DNA of 43,842 nt from Candidatus Moraniibacteriota bacterium (GTDB lineage: Bacteria; Patescibacteriota; Minisyncoccia; Moranbacterales; GWC2-37-73): contig DOKE01000011.1 in the NCBI GenBank assembly GCA_003510895.1, positions 35,821 to 79,662 of the forward strand, in the 5' to 3' direction. Below, in pieces: positions 2,667-38,903 of this stretch; the stretch's first letter is position 1; each line of letters begins with the position of its first letter. The notes beneath the pieces were generated by a model. That model worked only from the letters and a program-made list of their open reading frames with translations, made no database searches and was not told the origin of the DNA. Both the position numbers and the translations under genes were made by a program.

Positions 2667-3065
2667 TTATTTTTTATTGGGAAAGATTGGGAATATATCG
2701 TGAAAAAGAAAAAAGAAAATCAATAGTGTCGCGCTGGTGATGAGGATGTTTTGCCAGAGAGAAAATTTCAAAAGAGAATTGCCGATTAAGAGAAAAGAAA
2801 ATAATATTACAAGCGGAAAAAGATGATTTTTTTCCGGTTTATTGAAATTAATATTTATTTTTCTTCCAATATGGGAAATTATCCAAAGATTGGCAAAGAC
2901 TAAAAAAGAAATAATCAAAAAACCTTCGTTTTGGGAAACTATTCCCGGCAGCACTGCTTCCAGAAGAAGCGCTACAAAAAAAGAGAACAGCAACCAAAAC
3001 AAACTATCGTGAAGAAGTTTATACGCAAGTATGGATAATTGTTTTTTGTCTAACTCTTTTTTCAT
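2667..3065 (-). CDS. small polytopic membrane protein, unknown function
   Basis: 132-aa ORF with about 4 hydrophobic helices. It is last in the minus-strand operon starting at 6222. I recognise no family. Confidence 0.5.
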   Translation of the reverse strand: MKKELDKKQLSILAYKLLHDSLFWLLFSFFVALLLEAVLPGIVSQNEGFLIISFLVFANLWIISHIGRKININFNKPEKNHLFPLVILFSFLLIGNSLLKFSLWQNILITSATLLIFFFLFHDIFPIFPNKK

Positions 3066-3085: not shown

Positions 3086-4417
3086 TTATTTAGATATGTA
3101 ATTTCTTGCAATATTATTTCGCAGAGACAATAGGGATAATTTCAAATTTGTCAGATTGATGTTTTGATTGAAATGCGCATCAAGAGAAGCAATTTCTGTC
3201 GGTTTTTCAAAATTTATGGAAAATAAATAGGAATTTCCTTTGAAATTTTTGATGTTATCCAAGCTTGTTTCGCAGCCATAATTTCTGGCAAGAAAAGAAG
3301 CTTTTTTTATTTTGCAAGTATTCTCTGCTATTAAGCTTTTATTTTCAATTAAAACTGGATTATTTCTCAGATATGTTTTTAAGATGGATTCACTTTTTAT
3401 TTTTCGTTTGGTTTTTCCTTGAATATAATAGTATTCATTAGTTTCGCTGTTTTTGAATATTGTTCCCGATGGATGGGCGCCTCTGATTGTGAAAAGTTTT
3501 GCTTTTTGATACATTCCAATTTCTTCGCTGTTGGCTTGCAATATATCAGACCAAATGTAACCCATTCCTTCGAAGGTAGCCGGATTGTCTATTGGATTAA
3601 TAAAACCGTCGCTTGCGATGTAGGCAGATTCTCCCGCCGCTATCAATGTTCCGTCATTAAATCCAAGCATATCTTCCGAAACAGTAAAATTATTTATGAA
3701 AGAAGGATCTTTGTCGATTGCTTGTTCGATTGAATATTGAGTCAGATAAGCGTTTTCACTGACAAATTGTCGAAGATTTGAATCTTGAAGCTGATAATAA
3801 ATATCAGCTATTCGGAAAATTGAATTATTGGGATAGGTTGTCTCTGAAACTATGAGAGCATCTGTCGCATTATATTTTAAGTCTTCTAAAGAAACTTCCA
3901 AGAAAGCTTCTTTTTTGAAACCCATTTTATAAGCTAAATCAGGAGAAGAAAATTTTCTGAGTTTGTCATTGGAAACAATAAAAAGATCCACATTGTTTTT
4001 CAAAAGAGTTCCATTCTTGAATCCCAAATCATTTCTATCCGGATAGAAAAAAGACGCGTAAGATTTTTTAATGCTTATTTCTCCAATAATTGAATCATTA
4101 AAATTTTCTGACGGAACAAAATTTATGCTGGCGGTGGAATATATGCCAGTTGCAGCAGCGTTAAAAAAAAGATTTTTTCCTTCAGGTATTTTTCCGTTTT
4201 CATATAAATTTCCATTGGACATTTTCATTTCATTGATTGAATTTTTGGATGAATTGATATTTTGAAAGGAAAAATTGAAAGATTTTTCGGGAAATAATAT
4301 TTTATAAGCAACGAATATCCCGGTTGTTAAAAAAATAATAAAAACAAAAAATCTGGAAAATATATATATTTTCCTCAATGATTTTTCCAGTTGTATTTCT
4401 TTTGTAAACTCAAACAT
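3086..4417 (-). CDS. N-terminally anchored extracytoplasmic protein, unknown function
   Basis: 443-aa ORF with one N-terminal TM (IYIFSRFFVFIIFLTTGIFVAY) followed by about 400 aa of hydrophilic sequence. Its ATG overlaps the stop of the upstream GT-C gene by 1 nt (TAATG at 4417). Confidence 0.6.
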   Translation of the reverse strand: MFEFTKEIQLEKSLRKIYIFSRFFVFIIFLTTGIFVAYKILFPEKSFNFSFQNINSSKNSINEMKMSNGNLYENGKIPEGKNLFFNAAATGIYSTASINFVPSENFNDSIIGEISIKKSYASFFYPDRNDLGFKNGTLLKNNVDLFIVSNDKLRKFSSPDLAYKMGFKKEAFLEVSLEDLKYNATDALIVSETTYPNNSIFRIADIYYQLQDSNLRQFVSENAYLTQYSIEQAIDKDPSFINNFTVSEDMLGFNDGTLIAAGESAYIASDGFINPIDNPATFEGMGYIWSDILQANSEEIGMYQKAKLFTIRGAHPSGTIFKNSETNEYYYIQGKTKRKIKSESILKTYLRNNPVLIENKSLIAENTCKIKKASFLARNYGCETSLDNIKNFKGNSYLFSINFEKPTEIASLDAHFNQNINLTNLKLSLLSLRNNIARNYISK

Positions 4418-6222
4418 TATTGTTTTTTTAATTTTAAAATGTATCCTTCAATCGCGACATTTTCCTTGGCCGGATATCTTATGATGGGCAATATGTCATT
4501 TTTTTTGAATTCAGAAAGGCGAGTAGTTTGGAATATATATTTCTCTTTAATTTCCAAGCGATTGCCCAATTCGCTTCCCGCATAATAGGCTAAATTTTCT
4601 TTGGGCGAAAGGAGATAGATATTTTCAAATTTTTGCAGGTCTATTTTTTTTATATCGGATGGATTGAAAAAATAAACAGCTTGTTTCTTGAAAATACTTT
4701 CCAATGGTCCGGAAATCATTGACCATCCGTCTCCGCTAGCTAATCTGTCCACTAAAATCAAATCTTTGTCTGAGAATTTTGCGCTTATTTTTTTCGTTTG
4801 CTCAATCAGATTTTGGTTTTCCGAATAAAAAGCGTAGCGAGAAAACGATTTGAGATTTAAAAATAGCAAAGTGATGATTGCAATAGTGGAAAAATATTTG
4901 GAAAATGCCGGACGCCTAGGTTCGCCTTCTTTTTTGCTTAGCAACATTTTGAATAAATATGTTGTATAAAAAATAAAAAGGGGCAGGATCGCAAAGACAA
5001 ATCTTCTCAGCATCCAAGGATGGTCCGAAGATATATTTGAATCAATAAGATATATGAGGGCGGGGAATGTGACTAGCAATGGAATTAAAATAAAAATCGA
5101 TTTTTCCCAGAAAGATTTTATCGCGCCTATGAATCCCAGAATTAAAAATCCAGCAAGTCCATATAGAATGTATATCTGGGAAACGCGTATGGCCGGAGAA
5201 AAAACTGTATGGGAAAAATCTTGAGTCCTGACTTCTGGTTCAGAGAATTGATTGATAACCGCTTTGGCTATTTCCCTAAAAAATGGCAGATCTTTTTGAA
5301 AATTAATGACAAATATGACAAAAAAAGCCAGAAGAGCGATTAATATATTTTTGTAATTTATTTTTATAAATTTTCTAAAATGTTTGCTTAACGAAAGAAT
5401 AAGTAAACTGGCTGGCACAAAAGCGTAGCTTTCTATTCGAGTGAATATGAGCAAAGTGGATACTGCGAAATATAGAGAAAATATTTTTAAATCAGGTTTT
5501 TTTATTAAATAAAAAACAGTCAAAATCATTATCCATAAAAGCGGCATAGTCAGATTTTCGCTGAGAGTGGATTTGAAAAACCATACAAATGAAAAAGATG
5601 TCAGTGTGAAAAACAAGAGAAGGTAGGAATATTTTGTTCCAAGAAGTTCTTTTCCAATAAAATAAAAAGAAAGTAAAAACAAATAAAAAGCTATGGCATT
5701 GGCGATGATCATCCCCGTGAAACCAAAAACAGAGAAAAAAGCTCCCAGCCACGAAATGTATCCCAAAGGAAATTGGGTTGTCAATTCTCCATTGTTTGTG
5801 TAGTGAAATCCGGGAAAGTTTAGGGCCTTGCCGGATCCGTATATGGAAAAAAATTCTTCGGAAGCGATATTTGAAAAAGCTAAATGATGATGACTACTTA
5901 AATTTATGGCGGCATTACTCAAAGAACCCTGGTCTCTTCCTGAGAAAATGGTGGGAGTAACAAAAAAAGAAAATAGTGTAATTAGGGCAATAAATATTAT
6001 GTTTATAATTATGAAACTTCTGGAAAGTTCGAATCTAATTTTATTTTTTAGAACAGCCCAGGAAGAATACAATATTCCCAGTGAGAAATAGGAGATAAAA
6101 ATCCATCCATAGAAAAAATTAAGCAATGTTGATAGCAACGCCAGTATGCCGAATATTCCCCAGAACAAGGAAAAATTCAAAAAAAATGTTTGATCGCTTA
6201 TGATCCTTTTAGTTTCTTTCAT
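4417..6222 (-). CDS. GT-C-fold-like integral membrane glycosyltransferase (ArnT/PMT-like), putative
   Basis: 601 aa with more than 10 TM helices, an early extracytoplasmic loop carrying an acidic residue (SGRDQG) and a C-terminal soluble domain of about 150 aa. The assignment rests on architecture only, not on a recognised signature. Confidence 0.55.
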   Translation of the reverse strand: MKETKRIISDQTFFLNFSLFWGIFGILALLSTLLNFFYGWIFISYFSLGILYSSWAVLKNKIRFELSRSFIIINIIFIALITLFSFFVTPTIFSGRDQGSLSNAAINLSSHHHLAFSNIASEEFFSIYGSGKALNFPGFHYTNNGELTTQFPLGYISWLGAFFSVFGFTGMIIANAIAFYLFLLSFYFIGKELLGTKYSYLLLFFTLTSFSFVWFFKSTLSENLTMPLLWIMILTVFYLIKKPDLKIFSLYFAVSTLLIFTRIESYAFVPASLLILSLSKHFRKFIKINYKNILIALLAFFVIFVINFQKDLPFFREIAKAVINQFSEPEVRTQDFSHTVFSPAIRVSQIYILYGLAGFLILGFIGAIKSFWEKSIFILIPLLVTFPALIYLIDSNISSDHPWMLRRFVFAILPLFIFYTTYLFKMLLSKKEGEPRRPAFSKYFSTIAIITLLFLNLKSFSRYAFYSENQNLIEQTKKISAKFSDKDLILVDRLASGDGWSMISGPLESIFKKQAVYFFNPSDIKKIDLQKFENIYLLSPKENLAYYAGSELGNRLEIKEKYIFQTTRLSEFKKNDILPIIRYPAKENVAIEGYILKLKKQ

Positions 6223-6229
6223 TGATATT

Positions 6230-6258
6230 ATTATATCTTTGATTTATCTATTTGCCAA
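6230..6258 (-). promoter_or_regulatory. sigma70-like promoter for the 6222 minus-strand operon, probably leaderless
   Basis: The minus strand reads TTGGCA (6258-6253), a 17-nt spacer, TATAAT (6235-6230), then 7 nt and ATG at 6222. Confidence 0.55.
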
Positions 6259-6280
6259 GGCGCGACAGAAGCGTTAAAAT
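6252..6280 (+). promoter_or_regulatory. sigma70-like promoter for the Clp-like ATPase gene
   Basis: TTGCCA (6252-6257), 17-nt spacer, TAAAAT (6275-6280), about 65 nt upstream of ATG 6345. Its -35 box overlaps the -35 box of the divergent promoter. Confidence 0.45.
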
Positions 6281-6344
6281 AGAAAAAAGGTTTGCTTCGA
6301 AGCGTGATTTTTTCAGTTTTCAAAAACTAAAATCAAAATCAAAA

Positions 6345-8846
6345 ATGACAAAAAGAAAAACATTTCATTACACCAGATTGCTTGATGATAAAAAAAACAA
6401 AAAAACAAGTTTTTTTAGTTGGTACTATGAAGACGGGTTGCGCGAGTTTTTGGAAATTTGGAAAAATTTTTTGAAATTTATTTTGGTTTATTTTTCAATT
6501 TTTGATCTTTTTCACACAATTATTTCTCCCTGGAAAAGAGATGCGCAGGCGGGGAATTGGCGCGGTTGGCATCCTTTGAAAACTGCGCAGCTTTTGTTTA
6601 ATAATTTGTTTTCAAGATCTGCTGGTCTTTTAGTCAGAACGGCGACTATTTCAGTCGGTTTATTTTTATTTTTTGCTTTATTTTTCTTGGGAGTTTTCCT
6701 GTTAATGTTGTGGTTGATTTTCCCGGCGTTATTTATTTTTTTAGCGTTAAAAACCGTTAATGGAACTTCGATGGCTTTTGGATTTTTCGGAACAAGTGTT
6801 ATTTATATAGTTATTGTTAAATTAGCGCATAGTTTGGACACGAAAATTCCTTATGAAAATATGGATAAGGATGTTCTGAGCAGAAAGAAAATATTTGAAC
6901 GTATTTGCAATAGACTTGGAATGCCCAAAAGAATTTTTCCCAAAAGTGTTTTTAAAAGTGAAGAGTCTTTGAAGATATTTTTAAAATCGGAAAACTTGAC
7001 TCTTTCGGATTTTGAAAAAATATTAGATTGGGAAATAAAACTAGCCAATAATTATGAATCCAGGAATTATTTTTGGCGTTGGGATAATTTGAAGAAAATT
7101 TCTCCGATTGGATCGCAGTGGAAATATGCCTATACGGTTAATCTTGATAACTATTCAACTGATCTTTCTGTTTTTGATCTCACTGAATATAGGGATAAAA
7201 AATTAAATGGCAGAGAAGATGAGGAGGAACTTTTGAATTTGATTTTGCAAAGACCTGATCAAAATTGCGCTCTCATTGTTGGAGGTTCGGGAATAGGAAA
7301 AAGCACGCTTGTTCATTCGTTTGCGGAAAAAATACGACTGAATAAAGCTGATCGTTTTTTTAAAAATAAAAGAATGGTTATTTTAGACGCAAGTAGAGTT
7401 ATTGCCGGAGCGATCAACAAAGGCATTGACGCAGAAAGCGTTTTGCGAGAATTATTTGCGGAAGTTTCTTATGCTGGAAATATAATTTTGGTTATTGAAC
7501 ATCTTGAGCAATATCTTGGCAAGAGTGGAAATGTTTTTCATCCGGATATAGAATTGGTGATGAGCGAGTTTCTTGCCCATCCGAATTTTCAAGTTATAGC
7601 CACTTCTTCCAATAAAGAATATCACCAACTTATAGAAAAACATGATCAAATTTTGAAATATTTTGAAGTTATTGAAATGCGAGAACCATCACTTGATGAA
7701 ACTCTGGACATTCTATATGGCACATTGAGATTATATGAATCCAAAAATGTTATTTTCACTCACGAAGCCTTGAAATCCATCATAAAAGAATCCGGCAGGT
7801 ATAACTGGTCTTCTCCGCTTCCGGAAAGGGCAATTGATTTGGCTATGGATGTTTTCACTTATTGGGAAAAAAAATCGCAATCTCTTTTTATTAATGAACA
7901 AACGGTTTTGGATTTTATTTCACTTAAAACAGGAATGCCCCACGGAGAAATCAGACCGGGAGAAAGAAAGCAGCTTATGAATTTGGAAAAAAATCTTCAT
8001 CAGCAAATAATAGGTCAGGAAGAAGCAGTCAATCAAATAGCTGAAGCGCTAAGAAGAACCAGGAGCGGAATTTCCAATTCAAAAAAACCGGTGGGCAGTT
8101 TTCTGTTTTTAGGTCCGACTGGAGTGGGAAAAACTGAAACAGCCAAGGCTTTGGCGAAAATATATTTTGGAGATGAAGAGAAAATGATCCGATTTGATAT
8201 GAGTGAATTTCAAACTCCCAGTTCAATTGACAGGTTGATTGGATCGAGCCAATTGAATCAACCGGGGAGACTAGCGACACAAGTGAAAGATAATCCTTAC
8301 TCGCTTATTCTTTTGGATGAAATCGAAAAAGCGTATCCGGAAATTTTGGATATTTTTCTTCAAATTCTTGACGAAGGTTATGTTACAGACGCCTTTGGAG
8401 AGAAAATAAATTTTAGAAATACGATAATTATCGCCACTTCAAATGCTGGCGCGGCGCTTATTAAAAACGAAGTTGAAAAAGGGATGGCTCCAGAATTGAT
8501 CAAGAAAGACATTATAGATTATGCTGTTGCTAATAATATATTCAGAGTGGAATTTTTGAATCGTTTTGATGGGGTAATATTTTTTCGTCCTCTTATGGGA
8601 AGCGAGTTGACAAGCGTGGTCAAGCTTATGCTTAAAAAATTAGCCAGAAGATTGTTGAATGAAAAAAATATTGAGGTTGAATTTTCAAATGAAATTGCGG
8701 AAAAAATAATTGAAGGAGGATATAATCCGATTTTTGGAGCCAGATCGCTCAATCGTTATATTGAAGATACGGTGGAAGATATTTTAGCTAAAAAAATAAT
8801 TTCCGGAGAGGTGAAAAAGGGAGAGAAAATAAAATTAGGAATATGA
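6345..8846 (+). CDS. membrane-anchored Clp/Hsp100-family double AAA+ ATPase (atypical ClpB/ClpC-like)
   Basis: D2 is canonical: FLFLGPTGVGKTE Walker A, LILLDEIEKA Walker B, ATSNAG sensor-1, FLNRFD Arg finger, GARSLNRYIE sensor-2. D1 has Walker A GGSGIGKST but a degenerate Walker B (ILVIEHLE). The N-terminal roughly 170 aa contain several TM helices. The ORF-track TTG at 6252 is better read as a -35 box, so I start the CDS at ATG 6345. Confidence 0.8.
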   Translation: MTKRKTFHYTRLLDDKKNKKTSFFSWYYEDGLREFLEIWKNFLKFILVYFSIFDLFHTIISPWKRDAQAGNWRGWHPLKTAQLLFNNLFSRSAGLLVRTATISVGLFLFFALFFLGVFLLMLWLIFPALFIFLALKTVNGTSMAFGFFGTSVIYIVIVKLAHSLDTKIPYENMDKDVLSRKKIFERICNRLGMPKRIFPKSVFKSEESLKIFLKSENLTLSDFEKILDWEIKLANNYESRNYFWRWDNLKKISPIGSQWKYAYTVNLDNYSTDLSVFDLTEYRDKKLNGREDEEELLNLILQRPDQNCALIVGGSGIGKSTLVHSFAEKIRLNKADRFFKNKRMVILDASRVIAGAINKGIDAESVLRELFAEVSYAGNIILVIEHLEQYLGKSGNVFHPDIELVMSEFLAHPNFQVIATSSNKEYHQLIEKHDQILKYFEVIEMREPSLDETLDILYGTLRLYESKNVIFTHEALKSIIKESGRYNWSSPLPERAIDLAMDVFTYWEKKSQSLFINEQTVLDFISLKTGMPHGEIRPGERKQLMNLEKNLHQQIIGQEEAVNQIAEALRRTRSGISNSKKPVGSFLFLGPTGVGKTETAKALAKIYFGDEEKMIRFDMSEFQTPSSIDRLIGSSQLNQPGRLATQVKDNPYSLILLDEIEKAYPEILDIFLQILDEGYVTDAFGEKINFRNTIIIATSNAGAALIKNEVEKGMAPELIKKDIIDYAVANNIFRVEFLNRFDGVIFFRPLMGSELTSVVKLMLKKLARRLLNEKNIEVEFSNEIAEKIIEGGYNPIFGARSLNRYIEDTVEDILAKKIISGEVKKGEKIKLGI

Positions 8847-8896: not shown

Positions 8897-8926
8897 AGCT
8901 AAGTGAGTTTTGATTGGAAAAAATAT

Positions 8927-10333
8927 ATGGTAAAAATTTTTTTAGGCAGAATAAACAAAAAGTGGGCAAGAATCGCCCTCTTATTTGTTGTGATATTTTT
9001 TTTGGGTTTTTACTTTTTTTCCTACGCGAAAGAAAACAAAAAGAGTTTTGCCATAAACTCGCTTGCGGTTTTGGACAAGTTTTCGAAATTTCTTCCGATC
9101 GAAAGCGATACAAAGAAAGAAATTGAGGCTGCGAACAAATTAGTTGAAAAATTCACCAATAAAGATGACAAAGAATATTCGTTTTTAGTGCTTTTGCAAA
9201 ACAATATGGAATTGCGTCCTGGAGGGGGATTTTTGGGGCAATATGCGGTAATAAAAATAAAAAATGGCGAAGTGACTTCATCCTTTGTTGAAGATGCCAA
9301 TCTTTTGGATCAAAGAATTTCAGCAAAAATTCCCGCTCCATATCCTTTCTTGCAAACAATGCAAATCAGGAATTGGAAATTTCGAGACTCAAATTTTTCT
9401 CCCGATTTTCCAACCAATGCGGAAAAAGCCAAATATTTTTATCGCCTTAGCGGTCGAAACAGCGATGGTTTTGACGGGGTGATTGCCGTGAACGCTTCTG
9501 TTTTGAATGATGTTTTGGAATTGACAGGACCACTGACTGTTCCGGGATATAATGTTGAATTCAATAGCGATAGCGCCGTTTTGAAATTAGAGGAGATTGT
9601 GGAAAAAAGATATTTGGAAAATCCTGATCTGGATACTCAAAATCGAAAAGCTATAATGAAAAAAATGACTCCGCTTTTGATTGATAAGTTGACAAGCTTT
9701 GGAAACATAATGAAATTGGCAAGTTTTGCGCAGTCGCAAATCAATAAGAAAAATATAATGGTGAATTTTGCCGATGCGGAACTTCAAAAAATGGTTGAGA
9801 AGGTTCATTGGGATGGTTCGGTTGACAAGCAATGGGACGGAGACTATTTGATGGCGGTTGACGCGAATATGGGAGCGTTGAAATCAGACTACTATATGAA
9901 AAGGGAAATGACCTATAATATTGATTTAACTGCGCCGAAACCTGTTGTTGAGTTGAAAATTCTCTATACGCATACGGCAAAATATGGAGACTGGCGAACA
10001 AGCGACTATCATTCATATCTTCGGGTGTATGTTCCGGAAGGTTCAAATTTGTTGGAAAGGAAAATGGTGGGATATCCAAATGTCCAAAATGATTTTGGAA
10101 AAACTTATTTTGGCTTCAAGCTCGATGTTCTAATCGGCGGTCAGACCGAAGCCTATGTCAAATATGAACTTCCGGAAAGATTTTCCAATATTGAGGAATA
10201 TAAATTATTAATTCAAAAACAATCAGGAGTAGGAGCTGTGCCGGTCAATATTCACATCAAAGCGGAAGACGGAGAATTTGACGCTCAGAGCGTTTTGGAA
10301 AAAGATTCAAAGTTTGAATTTAAAAAGTCCTAA
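8927..10333 (+). CDS. DUF4012 domain-containing membrane-anchored protein
   Basis: N-terminal TM (IALLFVVIFFLGFYFF) and the hallmark DUF4012 motif LLQNNMELRPGGGFLGQYAVIKIKNGEV. The alternative start is GTG 8903 (ORF track). Confidence 0.75.
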   Translation: MVKIFLGRINKKWARIALLFVVIFFLGFYFFSYAKENKKSFAINSLAVLDKFSKFLPIESDTKKEIEAANKLVEKFTNKDDKEYSFLVLLQNNMELRPGGGFLGQYAVIKIKNGEVTSSFVEDANLLDQRISAKIPAPYPFLQTMQIRNWKFRDSNFSPDFPTNAEKAKYFYRLSGRNSDGFDGVIAVNASVLNDVLELTGPLTVPGYNVEFNSDSAVLKLEEIVEKRYLENPDLDTQNRKAIMKKMTPLLIDKLTSFGNIMKLASFAQSQINKKNIMVNFADAELQKMVEKVHWDGSVDKQWDGDYLMAVDANMGALKSDYYMKREMTYNIDLTAPKPVVELKILYTHTAKYGDWRTSDYHSYLRVYVPEGSNLLERKMVGYPNVQNDFGKTYFGFKLDVLIGGQTEAYVKYELPERFSNIEEYKLLIQKQSGVGAVPVNIHIKAEDGEFDAQSVLEKDSKFEFKKS

Positions 10334-10374: not shown

Positions 10375-11556
10375 ATGCAATCATTTTTGATTAAAATTGG
10401 AAAAATTTTAAATGTTTTAAAAAGAGACGGTTTTTTTCGGGGTTTGAAAAGAATTTTTCGTGTATTTTCTTTGCGGTTTCGCAGAGTAGGAGAGGGTGAA
10501 GTTCTTTTTGTGACCGGCGGGCTCGGGGATAGCGCGATGTATCGGGCGCGCAATGTGGCTGAAGAACTGGATCTCAATGGGATTTCGACGGCTGTAGCTT
10601 ATGCCGATAATCCGCTTTTTGAAAAATACGTAAAACAATTTAATATTTTTGTTTTTCATCGCGTTTTATATTCCAAAAAAGTCCAAAAATTTATCGAAGA
10701 AATAAAAAAACAAAAAAAGGAAATTATTTTCGATACGGATGATCTTTTGTATGAAGAAGAATTTATCAAAAATACTGATTATTTCAAAAACATAAATTCA
10801 TTGGAAAAAAAATTATATGAAAACGGGCTGGGAAGTGAGATAGTCAATGATGATTACGTGAAAGTTTGCACAACAACCACAAATTTTTTGGCGGAAAAAT
10901 TGAGGGAAAAGGGCAAAAAAGTTTTTGTCGTTCCAAATAAATTATCCCAGCAGGATTTGGAAATTGTTCAGGCGGTCAATTATAAACGCTCCGCATCGCA
11001 TATCCCGCATTCTTCGATTAGAATTGGATATTTCAGCGGGACGGCAAGTCATAATCAGGATTTTGCTCAAATAACTCAGCCATTGGAAGATATTTTGGAG
11101 AAATATAAAAATGTCGAATTGTTTTTAGTCGGTCCATTGGATGTGGAAAGCAGTCTGAATAAATTCAAGGAGAGAATTGTTCAGTTACCATATGTTCCCA
11201 GGGAAGATCATTTTGAAAATATTTCCAAGGTCGACATAAACTTGGCGCCTCTTGTTGTTGGCGATCCTTATTGCGAGTCAAAATCAGAATTGAAATTTTT
11301 TGAAGCGGCGATTCTGGGCGTGCCGACAGTGGCAAGCGCTACGCAGACTTTTTGTGAAGCAATCTTGGATGGCGTGGACGGTTTTACGGCAAAATCAGAA
11401 AATGAATGGTTTGAAAAATTGGAAAAATTGATTTTAGAAAAGGAATTGAGAAAGAAAATGGGAGAAAAGGCGAGAGAGAAAGTTTTGAAAAAATATACAA
11501 CGCAAAACGCAAAAAATGAAGAATATTATAATTATTTAAAAAACAAAACAAGATGA
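10375..11556 (+). CDS. group 1 (GT4-like) glycosyltransferase
   Basis: C-terminal GT-B motif CESKSELKFFEAAILGVPTVASATQTFCEAILDGVDGFTA. Its end forms an ATGA overlap with the next gene. Confidence 0.75.
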   Translation: MQSFLIKIGKILNVLKRDGFFRGLKRIFRVFSLRFRRVGEGEVLFVTGGLGDSAMYRARNVAEELDLNGISTAVAYADNPLFEKYVKQFNIFVFHRVLYSKKVQKFIEEIKKQKKEIIFDTDDLLYEEEFIKNTDYFKNINSLEKKLYENGLGSEIVNDDYVKVCTTTTNFLAEKLREKGKKVFVVPNKLSQQDLEIVQAVNYKRSASHIPHSSIRIGYFSGTASHNQDFAQITQPLEDILEKYKNVELFLVGPLDVESSLNKFKERIVQLPYVPREDHFENISKVDINLAPLVVGDPYCESKSELKFFEAAILGVPTVASATQTFCEAILDGVDGFTAKSENEWFEKLEKLILEKELRKKMGEKAREKVLKKYTTQNAKNEEYYNYLKNKTR

Positions 11557-12506
11557 AAATTCTGATCACGGGAGGGGCGGGGTTTATTGGGTCTAACTTG
11601 GCTAAAAAGTTGATGGACAGGGGCGACGAAGTGGTGCTGATTGATAATTTCAATGATTATTATGACGTTCAGCTCAAAAAAGATCGCATTAAAAAATATC
11701 TCAAGGGCTATAAGTTCAAGCTATATAAGGGCGATATTCGCGATAGTAAACTTTTGGAAAGAATCTTCAAAACAGAGAAATTGGATAAGGTGATGAGTTT
11801 GGCGGCTTTGGCTGGTGTGCGCAATTCTTTATTGGATCCGATTGGCTATGAAGACGTGAATATTAAGGGAACTTTGAATCTGTTGGAAATGTCTCGAAAA
11901 TACAAGATTAAGAATTTTGTATATGCTTCCTCGTCTTCAGTTTATGGAAATAACAAGAAGCAACCATTTTCTGAATCAGATAGCGTTGATACGCCAATTT
12001 CACCCTATGCGGCCACCAAGAAGGCCACAGAGCTTCTGGCGCACGTTTATAGCCATATTTATGGTCTGAACACGACCGGATTGCGTTATTTTACGGTTTA
12101 TGGACCTTGGGGCAGACCGGATATGGCTCTTTTTCTTTTTGCGGATGGAATTACGAAAGGCAAGCCGATCAATGTTTTTAATAAAGGCAAAATGAGTCGC
12201 AATTTCACCTATATAGATGACATCGTTTCTGGCACAATTACGGTAATTGACGCTAATCTCAAATGCGAAATAATGAACATTGGAGGTGATCGCGAAGAAA
12301 CTCTGATGCGTTATATCGAAGTGCTGGAAGAGAATCTCGGCAAGAAAGCCAAGAAGAATATGTTGCCGATGCAACCAGGCGATGTTCCGGCAACCGTGGC
12401 GGATATTCGAAAATTACGTAAGCTCGGCTGGAAACCAACCACTCGCATTGAAGAGGGAATTAAGAATTTCGTGAATTGGTACAAAGAATACTACAAAGTA
12501 AAATAA
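11553..12506 (+). CDS. NAD-dependent epimerase, UDP-glucuronate 4-epimerase-like (CapI/LpsL type extended SDR)
   Basis: MKILITGGAGFIGSNL Rossmann motif, NFNDYYDVQLKKDRI, catalytic SPYAATKKATE (YxxxK), and the C-terminal PGDVPATVADIRKL...NFVNWYKEYY typical of this subfamily. Confidence 0.8.
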   Translation: MKILITGGAGFIGSNLAKKLMDRGDEVVLIDNFNDYYDVQLKKDRIKKYLKGYKFKLYKGDIRDSKLLERIFKTEKLDKVMSLAALAGVRNSLLDPIGYEDVNIKGTLNLLEMSRKYKIKNFVYASSSSVYGNNKKQPFSESDSVDTPISPYAATKKATELLAHVYSHIYGLNTTGLRYFTVYGPWGRPDMALFLFADGITKGKPINVFNKGKMSRNFTYIDDIVSGTITVIDANLKCEIMNIGGDREETLMRYIEVLEENLGKKAKKNMLPMQPGDVPATVADIRKLRKLGWKPTTRIEEGIKNFVNWYKEYYKVK

Positions 12507-13264: not shown

Positions 13265-14728
13265 TCAAAGATAAAATCTGTACATTATTACATTAAAAAT
13301 CAGATATGTTGTTATGGAAAACATAAAAATCAATCCAGTTTTAAGCGCTGTGTCGAAATAGTGTTGTTTCTTGAAATAATGGAAGAGCATTCCTAATCCA
13401 ACAAAAACAAGGATTATATGCGAAGCCAGGTTAGGCAGGAAATATCGTCCAGGAAGACCGAGCGCAAAGCAATCGCATTTACTAAAAATTCGCCAATCAA
13501 AAGAGCGAATTCCAATTTGAAGGGCGAAGATAATAATTAATAGAAAAACAATATATTTTTTTTCCGGAAGATACGCGGGCTTTTCTTTTTTTGAAAAAAA
13601 GAACAATCCGAGTCCGGCAAAAGCGAAGAATTGAATAAGCCAAATTAAATACGTTACTTTATCCAGGAAAAAACTGTTTGTCCAGCTAAGCGCTCCCCAA
13701 TAAGTATTGGCTGATGCTAAAAATCTTCCAACTGTCATTGTTGCGCCAAGATATTTAAAAAGCGAAGAGAATGTTTGCAAAATAGATCGATCTTCAAAAG
13801 GCATAAATTTTTTGAAATATGCAAAAAGCAAAACCAACGCGATTGCAAAAAATGCATAGAAAGCGTAGCGGAATTTTTTTTCTTTTGCTTTGATTTTTTC
13901 ATTGATGAAATATAGGAATAGAAGAGCTAGTATTCCGAAAAGGACAATACCGGAGCCCTTTGCCTTAAAGCCTATTAATGCCGCAAAAAACATAATTGCC
14001 AAGTTTTTCCAACCCAGTCCATTTTTTAGTGCCAAAATTCCCCCCAGAGTAAAAAGAAAAAACATCGGGATCATTAATACGTCATAATTTATATTAGAAA
14101 AATACTCCGAAAGTTTTGGGTGAAAAGAAATAATAGTAGTCAGCAGGAGACTGTTTTTTTCCGAAAAACCCATATTTTTGGCAATGAGATACGCAAAAAG
14201 AATTGCCAATGTTCCCAGGAAAACGGAAAAAATTCTGATCGTATAATATCTAAAAAAAATATTTTGATTTTCCAGAATTTTTTCAATAAAAGAAGCGGTT
14301 TTGTGATATAGAGAACCATTAACTATGTCGGGCGGATAAAATTTGTTTATCGGCGGGAGATTATTTTGATTGATTTCATTTTCATTCTTGCCAATATAAT
14401 CTTTGGAAAAAATTATGGTATTGGAGATGCTCGAACGCAATAAATTGTTATTTGTCAGTGTTGCAGTGTTTTTTATTTCCTCAGAGAAGTTATAAGTTTC
14501 AAAATTGTCTCTGTCTTTTTCCTCCATTTGTTTTTGGATTATTTCCCAATCTTTTTTTGCGGGTTCAGTTAAATATTGGATGGAGTTATAGTGTCTAGCT
14601 TCGTCTTGACCAACAAAAATCGGTCGAAGAATTGCCAAAAAAACTCCCTTAAAGAAAAAAACGGACAAAATCAAAAAAAGGATAAATCCTGATTTTTTGT
14701 AGAAATTTTCTGATTGCGAAATGTTCAT
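13265..14728 (-). CDS. GT-C-fold-like integral membrane protein (DUF2142/PMT-like), putative glycosyltransferase
   Basis: More than 10 TM helices and a first-loop acidic motif (VGQDEARHY) like the DE motif of GT-C enzymes. The ORF track starts at TTG 14824, abutting gmd. I prefer ATG 14728 (MNISQSEN...), which leaves a 97-nt divergent intergenic region. Confidence 0.55.
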   Translation of the reverse strand: MNISQSENFYKKSGFILFLILSVFFFKGVFLAILRPIFVGQDEARHYNSIQYLTEPAKKDWEIIQKQMEEKDRDNFETYNFSEEIKNTATLTNNNLLRSSISNTIIFSKDYIGKNENEINQNNLPPINKFYPPDIVNGSLYHKTASFIEKILENQNIFFRYYTIRIFSVFLGTLAILFAYLIAKNMGFSEKNSLLLTTIISFHPKLSEYFSNINYDVLMIPMFFLFTLGGILALKNGLGWKNLAIMFFAALIGFKAKGSGIVLFGILALLFLYFINEKIKAKEKKFRYAFYAFFAIALVLLFAYFKKFMPFEDRSILQTFSSLFKYLGATMTVGRFLASANTYWGALSWTNSFFLDKVTYLIWLIQFFAFAGLGLFFFSKKEKPAYLPEKKYIVFLLIIIFALQIGIRSFDWRIFSKCDCFALGLPGRYFLPNLASHIILVFVGLGMLFHYFKKQHYFDTALKTGLIFMFSITTYLIFNVIMYRFYL

Positions 14729-14825
14729 AATTGGATTATAATATATAAGCGAGAAAAAGAAAACCCAGGAGGGTTTATTTTGATTTAATAGAAAGAAATA
14801 AAACAGTAATACTAAAATAAGCAAT

Positions 14826-15869
14826 ATGAAGCAAAAAAAGGCGCTGATAACAGGAATAACTGGGCAGGACGGATCTTATCTTGCAGAATTTCTTTTAGAG
14901 AAAGGGTATGAAGTTCATGGGATAATTCGCAGGTCAAGTTCTTTCAATACAAGCAGGATAAATCATCTTTATAAAGATCCACACCTTAAAGATGTTAAGC
15001 TATTTTTGCATTATGGTGATTTATCCGATGGTAGCAATATCAGTCGTTTGATTGAAAAAATCCAACCAGATGAGATTTATAATTTAGCCGCGCAGAGTCA
15101 TGTGAAAGTTAGTTTTGATGTTCCGAAATATACAGCTGATGTTACTGGAATTGGAACTCTCAGATTGCTGGATGCAATAAAGGAGTCGGGAATTAAAACA
15201 AAATTTTATCAAGCTTCCACTAGCGAACTTTTCGGAAAAGTTCAGGAAACTCCCCAAAAGGAAACTACTCCTTTTTATCCTCGCTCTCCTTATGGATGCG
15301 CAAAAATGTATTCATATTGGATAACGGTTAATTATAGAGAAAGTTATAATTTGTATGCGTGCAATGGAATTCTTTTTAATCATGAATCTCCTAGAAGAGG
15401 AGAAACTTTTGTTACTAGAAAAATAACCAGAGGTTTAGCAAGAATATTGGCAGGAAAAGATAATTGTCTTTATTTGGGAAATCTTGAATCAAAGAGAGAC
15501 TGGGGTTATGCAAAAGATTTTGTAGAAGGAATGTGGTTAATGCTTCAGCAAAAAAATCCTGATGATTTTGTTCTGGCAACAGGAGAAACCCATACAGTAA
15601 AAGATTTTATAGAAGAAAGTTGTAAAGTGGCTGGTATTAAAATTAAATGGAAAGGAAAAAAAGAAAAAGAGGTTGGAATAGATGAGAACACCGGAAAAAC
15701 AATAATTAGAATAGATCCTAAATACTATCGACCGTCGGAAGTGGATTTATTATTAGGTGATCCATCAAAAGCTATGAAAAAATTAAAATGGAAGCCAAAG
15801 ACAAAGTTTAAGGAATTAGTGAAAATAATGATGGAATTTGATTTAGAAAAAGAAGGTGTGATAAAATGA
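14826..15869 (+). CDS. gmd: GDP-mannose 4,6-dehydratase
   Basis: Near-textbook Gmd sequence: [72 protein letters not shown]. Confidence 0.95.
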
Positions 15870-17622: not shown

Positions 17623-18900
17623 ATGGAAAAAATTATTAGAGCAATACATATAAACATCTTTGGGCATGAAATGAGCGATGCTATGAGAATTTTTTTAAAA
17701 AATCTTTCTTGGTCTTTTTTTGGAGGAATATCGGCAGCGTTAATAATGTTTGTTTTGAGTGTGATGGCAGGGAAAACGTTGGGCCCAGATGCTTTTGGAC
17801 AGTATAACTCACTTCTTTCTTTCGCAACAGCGCTAACCTTTTTATTTTTAATGGGAAATGATGTTAGTAGTGTAAGATATTTGGCTGATAATAATTACGA
17901 AAAAAATAAAGGGGAAATTTTTACCACCTCGATTGTCTTGGTATTAGTGCAATCTTTTGTTTTTGGTTTGTTTTTTTATATATTCTTTAATTTTGTAAGA
18001 ATAAATTTTTCACTGGAAAGTGATAGTTTGCTCTTGGGAATAATTTTCTCTTTTTTTCTGGCGATAAAGAGTCTATTTGATGGATATTTGAGAGCTTTTA
18101 ACTTAATAAAAAGGCAGAGTTTTATAAGAATATCGGATGCGATACTAGTTATATGCTTTTTTTATTTTTTCTATTATTTTTTAGATAAAAGTGATTATTA
18201 TTTTTATGCGATATCTGTATTGTTCGGATCGTTCTTTTTTATTTCTGCTAGTCTAATTGCTCTTAGGGGTAATTTAAGAAAGTTTAGCTTCAAGATGGCA
18301 AAGCTTCTTTTTGGGTATAATAAATTTCTTATTTTTGGAGCTGCAATAGGTTTCATAATAAGTCTGGAGAAATATTTTATAGGTAAATATGTTGGCGCAT
18401 ATGAACTTGGAGTATATAGTGCTTATCATGCAGCTTCTTTTCTTATAATTTCCAATATCGGAGCAGTTTTTATGAATGTTTTTTGGCCAAGTTCAATAAT
18501 GGAAAAAAATAATTTAGAGGCAATATTAAAAAAAATAAATATTTTATTTTTAAAAGCATTTCCTTTTTGGATAATTTTAAACTCGCTCTTTATTTTATTG
18601 GTAATATTTTTAATGGGAGAGAGTTATCCTTTGAATTATGTTTATATTGTATTTTTTTCAATTGATGCGTTTTTATCTTTTGCATTTTCAATTTTTAATG
18701 GGCTACTCAAGATTAATAGGATTAAAGAATTTGTTATTATGTCTTATCTTTGTTATTCCTCTTTAATTATTTTGATAATTTTGTCTAGAAACGTTATGTA
18801 TTATTTGGTTGGACAGGTTTTTATTTATTCTATTTTTATTTTATTTGCAAACAAGAGATTGGGGAAAGATTTTGTCAAAAATAATGAAGTTATAAGATAA
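17623..18900 (+). CDS. Wzx-like oligosaccharide flippase (polysaccharide biosynthesis protein, MOP superfamily)
   Basis: 425 aa with about 12 TM helices and an N-terminal pattern FLKNLSWSFFGG...AGKTLGPDAFGQYN typical of the Polysacc_synt family. Confidence 0.7.
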   Translation: MEKIIRAIHINIFGHEMSDAMRIFLKNLSWSFFGGISAALIMFVLSVMAGKTLGPDAFGQYNSLLSFATALTFLFLMGNDVSSVRYLADNNYEKNKGEIFTTSIVLVLVQSFVFGLFFYIFFNFVRINFSLESDSLLLGIIFSFFLAIKSLFDGYLRAFNLIKRQSFIRISDAILVICFFYFFYYFLDKSDYYFYAISVLFGSFFFISASLIALRGNLRKFSFKMAKLLFGYNKFLIFGAAIGFIISLEKYFIGKYVGAYELGVYSAYHAASFLIISNIGAVFMNVFWPSSIMEKNNLEAILKKINILFLKAFPFWIILNSLFILLVIFLMGESYPLNYVYIVFFSIDAFLSFAFSIFNGLLKINRIKEFVIMSYLCYSSLIILIILSRNVMYYLVGQVFIYSIFILFANKRLGKDFVKNNEVIR

Positions 18901-28997: not shown

Positions 28998-30890
28998 TTA
29001 TTTATCAAAATACTCCTGAAACCATAGTTCGAGTGTTATAAGCGCCCAAATATGATATGCAAAACTTATTTTAGTATTAACATGAGTGTCTAGAATTTTT
29101 TTTACTGCTTCTTTTTTAAATATATTTCTTTTGACAGCTTTTTCGGATAGAAGTGTGTCATAGGCATATTTTTTTAATTTGCCACGAAACCAAATATCAA
29201 TTGGCGCTCCAAATCCCATTTTTGGTCGATACATAACTTCATTAGGAATAATTCCCTCCAGTGCTTTTTTTAGTATATATTTTTTATTATTCCATCCTTT
29301 CAGCTTTAAATTAAAAGGCACTTTAGCTGTAAGTTCAAGCATTTCATGATCTAGAAAAGGAGATCGCCCTTCAAGTGCCACTGACATTGTATCTATATCA
29401 ACTTTGACCATTAAATCATCAGGTAGATAAGTTGCTAAATCTGCATAAACTGCTTGCTCCGTCTTGTTTTTGGAGCCTGATTCAGAGAAATGATTAGCTA
29501 TAATATCGTATGAATCAATACCTTTCATTCTATCATTAAATTCATCAGTGTATAAGTTTTTCTTCATATCGTTATTAAAATAACAGCCATAATTTACAAA
29601 ACGATAATTATATGGTTGAAATAGACTTTCTGAAAAACGCAATGCTCTATTTAAGAAAATATTTTTTGAGATTTTTTCAATGATCCTTATTGCTGGAACA
29701 ACAATGAATTTATGAAGAATGGAAAAATTTTCATACATAAGCGCAAATTTATGAATGCTATATCTTCCGTAGCCTGCAAAGTTTTCATCTCCGCCGTCGC
29801 CGTTAAGAGCGACTGTTACATAATCTCTTGTCAACTTACTGACATAATAAGTTGGTAAAGCGCTAGAATCAGCATAAGGCTCTTCATATTGATATACTAG
29901 CTTAGGCAGCATTTCAATGGCGTCTGGCTTCACTATGAATTCTTTATGATCAGTTTTGAATTTATTGGAAATAATCTTGGCATACTTTAGTTCATTGTAT
30001 TTTTCTTCTTCGAAACCAATAGAAAAAGTTTTAATCGGTTTATCGGATAATTTGCTCATAAGCGCAACAACAGCGCTGGAGTCAATGCCACCAGAAAGAA
30101 AAGCTCCAAGCGGAACATCAGCAATCATTCGCAGCTTAATCGATTCCTCTAATTTTTCAATTATTCTTTTTTTCCATTCATTTTCGGATAAATTCAATTT
30201 CTTGGAATAATCCAATTTCCAATATCTTTCCTTTTCAATTTTTTTTGTTTTTAAATCAATAAAAAGATAGTGGGCTGGTTCGAGTTTTTTGAGATTTTTG
30301 AAGCCGGTAAGGGGGGCGGGACAATATTGTAAGGTTAGATAATGATGAATGGCGACATAGTCAACTTCTTTTTTGTATTCCGGTTGTGTGAGAATCGCTT
30401 TGAGTTCAGAAGCGAACATAAAAACATTTTCGTCCAAATAATATTTGAATGGTTTTTTGCCAACGCGATCACGGGCGCAGAAAATTGTTTTTTCTTGTTC
30501 GTTGTAAATAGCAAAAGCAAACATCCCTCGCAAGTGATCGAGACATTTTTTTCCGAATTTATCATATAGCGCCATTATTATTTCAGTGTCGGAATGGGAT
30601 TTGAATTTGTAGCCCTCCTTTTCCAGAAGCTCTCTTTTTTCTTGAAAATTATATATTTCACCATTAAAAACGATCCAATATTTATTCATATATGCCATTG
30701 GCTGATGTCCAAGAGGGGAAAGATCAATAATTGAAAGGCGCCTATGACCCAAACCAACCTTTTTATCAGGAGAAATATACACTCCTCCATCATCCGGTCC
30801 GCGGTGGATAATTTTTTCGTTCATAGTCAAAATATCCGCTTCGGATAGTATACTGTTATTAAAATGTATTTTTCCTGTTATTCCGCACAT
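28998..30890 (-). CDS. asnB: asparagine synthase (glutamine-hydrolysing) family amidotransferase
   Basis: MCGITG with the N-terminal nucleophile Cys2, and the SGGIDSS PP-loop. At 630 aa the length is typical of AsnB. Confidence 0.9.
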   Translation of the reverse strand: MCGITGKIHFNNSILSEADILTMNEKIIHRGPDDGGVYISPDKKVGLGHRRLSIIDLSPLGHQPMAYMNKYWIVFNGEIYNFQEKRELLEKEGYKFKSHSDTEIIMALYDKFGKKCLDHLRGMFAFAIYNEQEKTIFCARDRVGKKPFKYYLDENVFMFASELKAILTQPEYKKEVDYVAIHHYLTLQYCPAPLTGFKNLKKLEPAHYLFIDLKTKKIEKERYWKLDYSKKLNLSENEWKKRIIEKLEESIKLRMIADVPLGAFLSGGIDSSAVVALMSKLSDKPIKTFSIGFEEEKYNELKYAKIISNKFKTDHKEFIVKPDAIEMLPKLVYQYEEPYADSSALPTYYVSKLTRDYVTVALNGDGGDENFAGYGRYSIHKFALMYENFSILHKFIVVPAIRIIEKISKNIFLNRALRFSESLFQPYNYRFVNYGCYFNNDMKKNLYTDEFNDRMKGIDSYDIIANHFSESGSKNKTEQAVYADLATYLPDDLMVKVDIDTMSVALEGRSPFLDHEMLELTAKVPFNLKLKGWNNKKYILKKALEGIIPNEVMYRPKMGFGAPIDIWFRGKLKKYAYDTLLSEKAVKRNIFKKEAVKKILDTHVNTKISFAYHIWALITLELWFQEYFDK

Positions 30891-38741: not shown

Positions 38742-38903
38742 ATGAAAAAAAACACAGGGCTTCTAATTCAGGCATGTATTTTTTTAAAGGAAAAAAGAGC
38801 TTGGTGGATGGTGCCAATTATAATTATGATATTTTTTGTTGGAGCTCTTGTTATCTTTGCTCAAAGCAGCGCAATAAGTCCTTTTATTTATAGCTTATTT
38901 TGA
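38742..38903 (+). CDS. DUF5989-family (SxtK-like) small membrane protein
   Basis: This ORF is not in the supplied track (53 aa). My own translation is MKKNTGLLIQACIFLKEKRAWWMVPIIIMIFFVGALVIFAQSSAISPFIYSLF. It fits the DUF5989 pattern (KERKxWWxxPII...ApFIYxxF). Confidence 0.75.
   Translation: MKKNTGLLIQACIFLKEKRAWWMVPIIIMIFFVGALVIFAQSSAISPFIYSLF

Follow-up and report, generated by a model that had tools for sequence, protein, structure and literature searches.

Results

A Clp-like ATPase gene with a predicted membrane anchor

The window analysed here is a stretch of 43,842 nucleotides from contig DOKE01000011.1 of a Candidatus Moraniibacteriota bacterium, and the gene in question occupies 6345..8846 (+) of it, stop codon included. 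Analysis of open reading frames (ORFs) together with Pfam, NCBIfam, phmmer, AlphaFold and Foldseek identified its product as a membrane-anchored, ClpC-like ATPase of 833 amino acids (aa) with two AAA+ modules. From stop to stop the ORF spans 6252..8846 (+), and the ATG at 6345 yields the 833 aa. A TTG at 6252 was considered as an alternative start codon and ruled out, because a sigma-70-like site detected by consensus scan (6252-6280) overlaps it and because the homologues set in at the ATG or beyond it, most of them near residue 18 of the protein read from the ATG. The ATG at 6345 is thus the likelier start codon; a longer N-terminus is common to the two closest homologues (84% and 70% identity).

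Pfam placed AAA_2 (PF07724) at residues 581-742 (1e-47) and ClpB_D2-small (PF10431) at 753-830 (3e-21), while the first AAA+ module, D1, drew generic P-loop matches only, plus a sub-threshold AAA_lid_9 at 450-499. The NCBIfam models for ClpB, ClpA and ClpV matched strongly, although far under their equivalog cut-offs (for ClpB, TIGR03346, 414 bits against a cut-off of 1232; for ClpA, TIGR02639, a score of 392 against 993). The best match among PDB sequences was S. aureus ClpC (6em8; phmmer E 6e-107), with D1 aligned to ClpC residues 159-404. An AlphaFold model built with 60 homologues had a mean local confidence (pLDDT) of 82 and a predicted TM-score (pTM) of 0.78. Against ClpC chains, Foldseek aligned about 575 residues of this model at a TM-score of ~0.83 relative to the target, and the model also superposed on ClpC, ClpC1 and ClpB protomers at ~0.8 on the same scale. 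A tandem of D1 and an AAA_2-type D2 followed by a ClpB_D2-small lid is the layout of class I Clp/Hsp100 proteins, and on its sequence the 833-aa protein belongs to this class of two-ring ATPases, with ClpC as its closest known relative.

D1 is degenerate, whereas D2 retains the canonical motifs

Motifs were compared in a HMMER alignment to S. aureus ClpC (6em8). A protein search returned ~120 homologues, 43-84% identical and nearly all full-length; those with a label come from Moranbacteria, Parcubacteria or Patescibacteria. Conservation was counted in a MAFFT alignment of 111 full-length members that, like the present protein, carry N-terminal module and ATPase in one chain (the fused form), with 30 canonical ClpC sequences in the same alignment.

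The D1 module (7131..7874, +) is catalytically degenerate, both in the ClpC alignment and in the family columns. Its P-loop is kept, the lysine K319 of Walker A (GGSGIGKST, 7281-7307, +) being K in 100 members and R in 11. At Walker B (ILVIEHLE, 7485-7508, +), VIEHLE stands for the FIDELH of ClpC; E385 is E in 94 members, and H386 is H in 62 and N in 39. The arginine-finger region reads LKYFE for ERRFQ (site KYFE, 7656-7667, +), with K438 in 111/111 and Y439 in 93/111. Both replacements had been proposed by eye in a first-pass annotation of this DNA and were reproduced by the formal alignment. A competent D1 would have a Walker B of the form hhhhDE and the arginine fingers of ERRF, for which we found VIEH and LKYF. 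Since neither the Walker-B glutamate nor the arginine fingers are present, D1 should be unable to hydrolyse ATP normally. We extended the comparison to 34 fused representatives and 84 ATPases of a split type, in which the N-terminal module is a separate gene. Walker B of D1 is DE in a few of these and otherwise DG, DN, DD, EN, EH, KE and the like, and the Walker A lysine is often Arg. D1 thus degenerates differently among the wider family, which points to relaxed catalytic constraint on this module.

The second module, D2 (7962..8594, +), is canonical by its Pfam match (AAA_2, 1e-47) and by motif conservation among the 111 homologues. It contains Walker A (GPTGVGKTE, 8112-8138, +), Walker B (LILLDEIEKA, 8304-8333, +), sensor-1 (ATSNAG, 8433-8450, +) and the arginine finger (FLNRFD, 8553-8570, +), and is followed by the D2-small or lid domain (8601..8834, +; PF10431 at 3e-21 and conserved in the family), in which sensor-2 lies (FGARSL, 8733-8750, +). 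GPTGVGKTE, LLLDEIEKA, ATSNAG, NRF and FGAR are invariant or nearly so, and the arginine finger R740 is kept in 110/111 members, bearing out the earlier description of D2 as intact.

Two further absences noted at first pass, those of the M-domain and of the ClpP-docking loop, were likewise upheld. The alignment to ClpC falls into two stretches, leaving ClpC residues 405-465, the M-domain, without a counterpart (the present protein continues from 509 to 511), while ClpA, which lacks an M-domain, aligns in a single stretch (residues 266-829 to ClpA 168-731). No long coiled coil between D1 and D2 appears in the AlphaFold model, where no helix within 450-530 exceeds 17 residues. Without an M-domain, control by DnaK or MecA is not expected. 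A docking loop of the form [ILVM]G[FL] occurs in 0/111 fused and 0/84 split-type members, as compared with 30/30 canonical ClpC, and docking of ClpP would therefore be impossible. Databases name the proteins of this family ClpC/ClpA-type 'Clp protease ATP-binding subunits', a label that is misleading because they cannot dock ClpP.

The pore loops have lost their aromatic residues

In D1, the pore loop (AGAINKGID, 7404-7430, +) reads AGAINKG where ClpC has AGTKYRG, so that the tyrosine is replaced by asparagine. An aromatic residue was found in this loop in 8/111 fused homologues, compared with 30/30 canonical ClpC, and the D1 pore tyrosine was never present across the 34 fused representatives and 84 split-type ATPases. 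In D2, the GAPPGYVGHDDGG of ClpC corresponds to GSSQ----LNQPG (GSSQLNQPG, 8241-8267, +), a four-residue deletion that removes GYVG; aromatic residues occur here in 4/111 fused homologues, again compared with 30/30 canonical ClpC. The central observation of the first-pass annotation, two pore loops without aromatics and the second of them shortened, thus holds for this protein and, together with the membrane anchor described below, across the fused family of 111 members. The short D2 loop has a conservation of its own (S634 in 107 members, L637 in 76 with L, I or M in 90, N638 in 82 and G641 in 111), and is therefore likely to be used rather than decaying.

The D2 loop takes four states in the wider set. 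Members of a Berkelbacteria-type clade keep the tyrosine in GSPAGY[SG][QE]KIEG, others have GSPTGSGQ or GSPAGSGQ, a third group is rich in glycine and acidic residues and lacks a hydrophobic one (GSG-QDDVPGE, GSN-EGGEELPG, GTADGGEG, with GSPPAAGAEG also among the variants), and the fused clade has GSSQLNQPG, four residues shorter. We infer a stepwise erosion of the D2 pore loop, the order of fusion and tyrosine loss being read from sequence patterns rather than from a rooted tree. Because some split-type relatives keep the D2 tyrosine, the ancestral activity was probably ordinary threading; the ancestor would then have been a ClpC-like threading enzyme that lost its paddle after the move to the membrane.

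The N-terminal 262 residues comprise a conserved module, a membrane hairpin and a Clp_N remnant

The part of the protein that precedes D1 measures ~262 aa, not the ~170 aa of the first-pass annotation, and its membrane anchor is well supported as two passes rather than as several transmembrane (TM) helices. It begins with a module (the N-module, residues ~22-135; 6408..6749, +) of conserved juxtamembrane helices followed by a first hydrophobic helix with W123 and P127. Residues ~22-98 are the most conserved N-terminal stretch, with the motifs FFSWYY..GL...LEIWKNFL.F...YFSI..L..TLFSPWKRD...NWRGF.P...N..SR..G..VR. Residues 22-135 fit the family signature W[HY][YF]...W.NFL.F...FS[IV]..L..TL[FI]SPW[KR]R...N..SR..G..[VI][RK] with its hydrophobic W...P helix. 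The module had no match in Pfam, NCBIfam, PDB sequences (profile search), Foldseek-PDB (searched with a model of pLDDT 84) or PADLOC.

The membrane hairpin (residues 99-165; 6639..6839, +) is delineated by hydropathy, by the AlphaFold helices and by counts of Lys plus Arg (K+R). Hydropathy gave hydrophobic segments at 99-135 and 143-162 with a short outside loop at 136-142, and the AlphaFold model has helices at 23-49 and 52-57, then a low-confidence loop, a long helix at 77-138 and a return helix at 142-165. Family mean K+R is 11.6 in residues 1-98, 0.5 in the loop 136-142 and 7.7 in 163-200; the flanks are basic and the loop is not, which by the positive-inside rule places both flanks in the cytoplasm. 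These data fit a predicted two-pass hairpin with both termini inside and the ATPase on the cytoplasmic side, the exact helix boundaries being uncertain.

From the hairpin, a helical linker (residues 170-262; 6852..7130, +) leads into D1 through short helices that end in FWRW.NL...PIG.QW.YAYT directly before it. A comparison by hhalign matched this linker to the N-terminal region of split-type ATPases at a probability of 98.9%, the fused form lacking ~39 residues; the split-type region in turn showed a weak alignment to canonical ClpC in its first Clp_N repeat (E 1.9e-4, probability 47%). Pfam did not detect Clp_N (PF02861) in the present protein or in the first 300 aa of seven ATPases of the split type; in the relative P0438, a Clp_N that Pfam does detect (PF02861, precomputed match) comes after a TM hairpin. 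The first-pass annotation had the usual Clp N-domain replaced, but it does not appear to have been cleanly replaced: the comparisons indicate that it moved behind the membrane hairpin and was here trimmed to a remnant within the linker, which carries the family motif as well. A further architectural variant was seen in the relatives P0453 and P0454, which have an N-terminal CxxC...CxxC zinc-ribbon before the TM segments and a Clp_N-like region.

The N-module forms one gene with the ATPase or has its own gene just upstream

Residues 1-262 were searched exhaustively with phmmer against 1.84 billion representatives, which at E<=1e-3 gave 511 clusters. Among them are Clp-like proteins of ~800-870 aa, along with many stand-alone proteins that are ~125-135 aa long and match over residues 22-135 alone. 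All 14 stand-alone N-module genes that could be placed lie directly upstream of a Clp-like ATPase gene and overlap or abut its start (loci L007, L008, L009, L049, L066, L077-L079, L081-L083, L085-L087). The small ORFs at these split loci encode 124-146 aa and 14/14 match the module's hidden Markov model (HMM) in hmmsearch (E 1e-21 to 1e-46); the ATPases downstream are ~815-850 aa long, each with two N-terminal TM helices of its own.

We also scanned GTDB species representatives with an N-module pattern derived from six closely related sequences, a sample biased towards Moranbacteria. The module was found in 74 loci and the whole unit in 62; of the other 12, ten are truncated where the contig or ORF ends, and for two the ORF analysis made no call. 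In 62/62 whole-unit loci the N-module and the ATPase are fused or adjacent. The fused form accounts for 54 of these, mostly with Moranbacteria labels but also Paceibacteria and Parcubacteria, and the split form for 8 (Portnoybacteria, Berkelbacteria, Saccharibacteria-labelled and unlabelled bins). The N-module and the ATPase are one gene in one lineage and neighbouring genes in others, which suggests that they work as one complex. Overall, it is well supported that the gene is a Patescibacteria-specific ClpC paralogue turned integral membrane machine.

A few loci came from bins labelled Bdellovibrionales, Micavibrio, Fimivivens, Omnitrophota or Verrucomicrobiae (L016, L022-L024, L031, L032, L063, L069 and others; P0358). 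Several share Moranbacteria-type neighbours, and we therefore suspect that these bins, whose labels lie outside the Candidate Phyla Radiation (CPR), have been mislabelled and do not reflect a true occurrence outside Patescibacteria.

The gene lies in a surface-glycan island, a context confined to the fused clade

Nearly all of the window from 1500 to 40000 is a surface-glycan biosynthesis island, in agreement with the first-pass description of cell-envelope glycosylation genes around the ATPase. It includes at least 10 glycosyltransferases (GTs) of families GT1, GT2 and GT4 and at least 9 S-adenosylmethionine (SAM) methyltransferases, together with an epimerase (11553-12506), a GDP-mannose 4,6-dehydratase (14826-15869), a Wzx-like flippase (17623-18900), an Asn-synthase-like amidotransferase (28998-30890, -), a carbamoyltransferase (35732-37492) and a DUF2304 protein (38888-39250, -). 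Upstream of the ATPase and divergent from it lies a gene for a 601-aa polytopic, GT-C-like membrane protein (4417..6222, -; PMT_2 at 6e-4, a weak match, and the NCBIfam putative glycosyltransferase LA_3751/3752 at 4e-9). It forms an operon with genes for a 443-aa protein that has an N-terminal TM anchor and no Pfam or NCBIfam match (3086-4417, -) and for a 132-aa polytopic protein (2667-3065, -). The ATPase and GT-C-like genes diverge from a common 122-bp region (6223..6344) in which consensus scanning, the only evidence here, found face-to-face overlapping sigma-70-like sites, with 10/12 matches on the plus strand (6252-6280) and 11/12 on the minus strand (6258-6230). The overlap suggests that transcription of the two genes may be coupled or competing. 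Downstream of the ATPase is a DUF4012 protein (8903..10333, +; Pfam 8e-24).

In 69 comparable loci, we counted homologues of these neighbours that lie no farther than 6 kb from the ATPase. The 601-aa membrane protein was the most persistent neighbour in the fused clade (42/69), followed by the 443-aa protein (37/69), the upstream GT4 and the downstream GT1 (33/69 each) and the epimerase (21/69). DUF4012, to which the first-pass annotation had drawn attention, was near the ATPase in 6/69 loci only; its adjacency is not conserved and it was ruled out as a functional partner. None of the six was found in the split-type loci examined. Surroundings there vary and comprise a cold-shock protein, an integrase, a Zip transporter together with a CsoR-like repressor, a YkuD transpeptidase and, ~5 kb upstream, ClpP and trigger factor. 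A distant fused member (L001) lies between GAPDH and MurI/MurD. The N-module is thus the only universally linked partner, and the glycan link is a lineage-specific lead that belongs mainly to the Moranbacteria-labelled fused clade.

Some further features were observed in and around these loci. At two Berkelbacteria-type loci, L085 (4618-4902, 11013-12443) and L086 (4445-6136, 10152-11594), the same genes flank the two-gene unit: upstream come a Zip metal transporter and a CsoR-like metal repressor, downstream a YkuD L,D-transpeptidase and a CAP-domain protein. The left edge of our window holds a Germane/Gmad2-domain protein (64-939) and a YgjP-like metallopeptidase (954-1514), the latter also found upstream in L006, the locus of a 66%-identical relative. 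ORFs of 519, 736, 483 and 239 aa in or beside the island (13265-14824, 32894-35104, 40611-42062 and 42420-43139, all -) had no Pfam match at E<=1e-4.

A probable split-type member in cultured Southlakia epibionticum

Tables S1/S2 of a study of Southlakia epibionticum (PMC10633639) list a hypothetical protein, SEML1_0701 (384 bp, 127 aa), that overlaps the start of SEML1_0700, an 'AAA family ATPase' (2583 bp, 860 aa). The Pfam coordinates tabulated for the latter are AAA 276-381, lid_9 415-471, AAA_2 544-706 and D2-small 713-792, with no Clp_N among them. This is the layout of the split form, and the two genes are probable members, a membership that rests on the gene sizes, overlap and Pfam coordinates given in those tables. 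Searches with our 'Saccharibacteria'-labelled ATPases gave generic Patescibacteria/Berkelbacteria entries only and thus no sequence link to cultured Saccharibacteria. The same tables place MurT, GatD, OpgC and GT39 near SEML1_0700 and flag it as 'core family' in Southlakia. Both genes received the transposon-sequencing (Tn-seq) calls NE, NE and GD over three passages, with reads falling from 4124 to 1638 and from 258 to 51 (PMC10633639). A canonical ClpC (SEML1_0512, with two Clp_N repeats and UVR) and ClpP (SEML1_0493) are listed in the same genome, both as non-essential (PMC10633639). If the membership is true, the cell has the membrane Clp as an additional paralogue and not as its sole Hsp100, with a modest contribution to fitness as tabulated there. 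If it is confirmed, the system could be tested in a cultured, transformable Saccharibacterium in which both genes show the same mild fitness defect.

Discussion

A proposed D2-driven machine at the membrane

The reading we prefer, to which we would give an even chance of being right, is that the protein is a ClpP-independent, D2-driven membrane remodelling machine that acts with its N-module by weak grip and short strokes. By homology, it would assemble into a hexamer of two tiers beneath the membrane, on the cytoplasmic side. In this hexamer D1 would most likely act as an assembly ring stabilised by nucleotide, and D2, with all its catalytic elements kept, would be the sole motor. The helical hairpin is predicted to hold each protomer in the bilayer, so that six Trp/Arg-rich N-modules could make up a juxtamembrane collar between the bilayer and the D1 entrance. 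ATP turnover by D2 at the membrane surface might then remodel or dislodge membrane-associated proteins, or the machine's own partner module, without proteolysis. A weak grip on polypeptide is expected, because the D1 tyrosine is gone family-wide and the D2 GYVG is eroded and here deleted; short-stroke tugging or clamping would be likelier than processive, high-force threading. The first-pass annotation went further and envisaged an active D2 ring that cannot thread substrates in the canonical way. The intact, conserved D2 is confirmed, but the inability to thread goes beyond the data: the D2 loop is conserved and split-type relatives keep GSPAGY, and a weak-grip mode of threading is therefore possible.

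Several points weigh against the machine as we picture it. Both the hexamer and the placing of the N-module collar are extrapolated from homology. Extraction from a bilayer normally needs a strong grip, and FtsH and Msp1 keep their aromatic pore loops, so that loss of the aromatics fits an extraction role poorly. An aromatic residue is retained in the D2 loop of 26/84 split-type proteins, and the fused clade itself might thread by means of L637. Finally, genomic context gives no consistent functional pointer, because the neighbours differ between lineages.

Alternative explanations

The strongest alternative, which we regard as unlikely but deserving of serious attention, is that of an ordinary hand-over-hand translocase, a disaggregase or unfoldase located at the membrane in which the aliphatic residue at 637 in GSSQLNQPG takes the place of the tyrosine. 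The D2 elements for sequential hydrolysis are all invariant, the loop is conserved with L, I or M at 637 in 90/111 members, close relatives retain GSPAGY, and the predicted fold is indistinguishable by Foldseek from substrate-bound ClpC and ClpB protomers. The D1 loop, however, lacks a hydrophobic gripping residue in every lineage, many split-type D2 loops consist only of glycine and acid-rich stretches (e.g. QDDVPGE, EGGEELPG, ADGGEG), and the D2 loop is shortened by a four-residue deletion and so may not reach the axis. Replacing the pore-loop tyrosine by a small or aliphatic residue impairs ClpX, HslU and ClpB, which also speaks against this explanation.

The island around the gene raises the possibility of a dedicated accessory of the neighbouring surface-glycan or envelope machinery, for instance one that assembles, activates or recycles a GT-C glycosyltransferase complex or a glycan exporter. 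We consider this doubtful. It would account for the 122-bp divergent region shared with the 601-aa GT-C-like gene and for the persistence of the 601-aa (42/69), 443-aa (37/69) and GT4/GT1 (33/69) neighbours down to ~40% ATPase identity, and it could draw on the envelope genes beside distant members (MurI/MurD at L001; those tabulated near SEML1_0700, a member by layout only). Yet none of the Moranbacteria-type neighbours recurs in split-type loci, where the N-module gene alone is constant, and DUF4012 stays adjacent too rarely to help. Proximity is also weak evidence in such small genomes, in which envelope genes are common, and synteny within a single clade may be simple inheritance.

A further alternative is a Torsin-like switch. 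With no free clients, the ring might cycle on the N-module, its stoichiometric partner, and pull on or clamp the basic SPWKRD loop of that module within an acidic pore, so as to gate or reshape a collar of 12-24 helices that could be a channel or conduit. The strict 1:1 genetic coupling or fusion of module and ATPase would be explained, as would the contrast between the strongly basic N-module (K+R 11.6) and the polar or acidic pore-loop regions (S-D-A-x-N-R-G-x-D-V-E-N in D1; D/E/G-rich D2 loops in the split clades), and Torsins, whose pore loops are free of aromatics and which membrane cofactors control, set a precedent (PMC5425593). But D2, unlike Torsin, supplies an arginine finger itself and has a canonical active site, and the placement of the N-module loop in the pore is speculative, the AlphaFold confidence for loop 64-71 being below 50; we regard such a switch as improbable.

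A bolder variant, and in our judgement a long shot, would make the protein the first membrane-integral Clp/Hsp100 machine, in which a D2-only motor coaxial with the 12-24-helix collar either gates it via the SPWKRD loop or propels a polymer across the membrane or out of it, the polar or acidic loops serving a non-canonical substrate. Such a polymer would be a protein or, conceivably, an envelope glycan intermediate.

Finally, an anti-phage defence cassette of ATPase and small membrane effector, suggested by a layout that resembles some defence systems and by partial PADLOC matches of D2 to DolB (2e-36) and PDC-M37B, or a decaying, non-functional Clp paralogue, suggested by the degenerate D1, is very unlikely indeed: the PADLOC matches cover a generic ClpB-like D2 only (residues 528-719) and are far weaker than those to ClpC, the N-module has none, which led us to reject a defence system, the chromosomal position among housekeeping and envelope genes is stable and inherited across several Patescibacteria lineages, decay is excluded, since the D2 motifs do not vary and more than 200 clusters have a full-length ORF, and the 'core family' flag tabulated for Southlakia argues against both.

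Significance

Clp/Hsp100 motors are the textbook case of polypeptide threading by aromatic pore loops and are known as soluble machines. The family described here would represent a whole Clp lineage that moved to the membrane, silenced D1, eroded its remaining pore loop stepwise and gained an obligate partner module of undescribed fold. With the tyrosine kept in some members, substituted in others and deleted in the fused clade, the family provides a natural series in which to ask what a Clp ring can do without its 'paddles'. It may also open a way into membrane proteostasis or envelope assembly in Patescibacteria, which account for much of bacterial diversity and are poorly understood.

Comparison with known systems

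Our literature searches found no published description of a membrane-anchored Clp/Hsp100 protein in CPR/Patescibacteria. Judged by sequence features, the proteins are best treated as a proposed family of Patescibacteria that combines a previously undescribed N-module with a TM-anchored Clp ATPase of degenerate D1 and canonical D2.

The closest relatives are ClpC and ClpC1 of S. aureus, B. subtilis and M. tuberculosis, with which our protein shares the order of D1 and D2, a trace of AAA_lid_9, the AAA_2-type D2, D2-small and the D2 catalytic motifs. It differs from them in lacking the Clp_N pair (of which a remnant is left), the UVR/M-domain, the ClpP loop and the tyrosines of KYR and GYVG, in a D1 that has neither the Walker-B glutamate nor arginine fingers, and in its membrane anchor and additional N-module. 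Like ClpB/Hsp104, to which its D2 region aligns at 1e-101 to 1e-104, it is a two-ring Hsp100 independent of ClpP; unlike them, it has no coiled-coil M-domain (and so presumably no Hsp70 coupling) and no pore tyrosines, and is predicted to have an inactive D1 and to be membrane-bound. ClpA likewise has no M-domain, but differs in having a ClpP loop (IGL) and both pore tyrosines, and in that its D1 is active and its N-domain soluble.

An N-terminal TM anchor that puts a hexameric AAA+ ring at the cytoplasmic face of a membrane is also found in FtsH and Msp1/ATAD1. These belong to the classical AAA clade, however, with a single ring and aromatic pore loops kept, and FtsH carries an M41 protease, whereas Pfam found neither Peptidase_M41 nor any other protease domain in the present protein. 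A division of labour similar to that proposed here for D1 and D2 exists in NSF and p97, where one ring binds nucleotide mainly for assembly and lacks aromatic pore residues while the other ring works; both are soluble proteins of another AAA+ clade, and their working ring keeps its aromatic pore loops.

The nearest functional analogy is offered by the Torsins, which are Clp/Hsp100-derived AAA+ proteins, associate with membranes, lack aromatic pore loops and have small membrane partners. Torsins are thought not to thread processively and depend on membrane cofactors (PMC5425593). They consist of a single module, reside in the ER lumen and receive their arginine finger from LAP1 or LULL1, whereas the ATPase described here has two modules, is predicted to face the cytoplasm and carries an arginine finger of its own in D2. 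The resemblance is thus a functional one, of analogy and not of homology at the family level.

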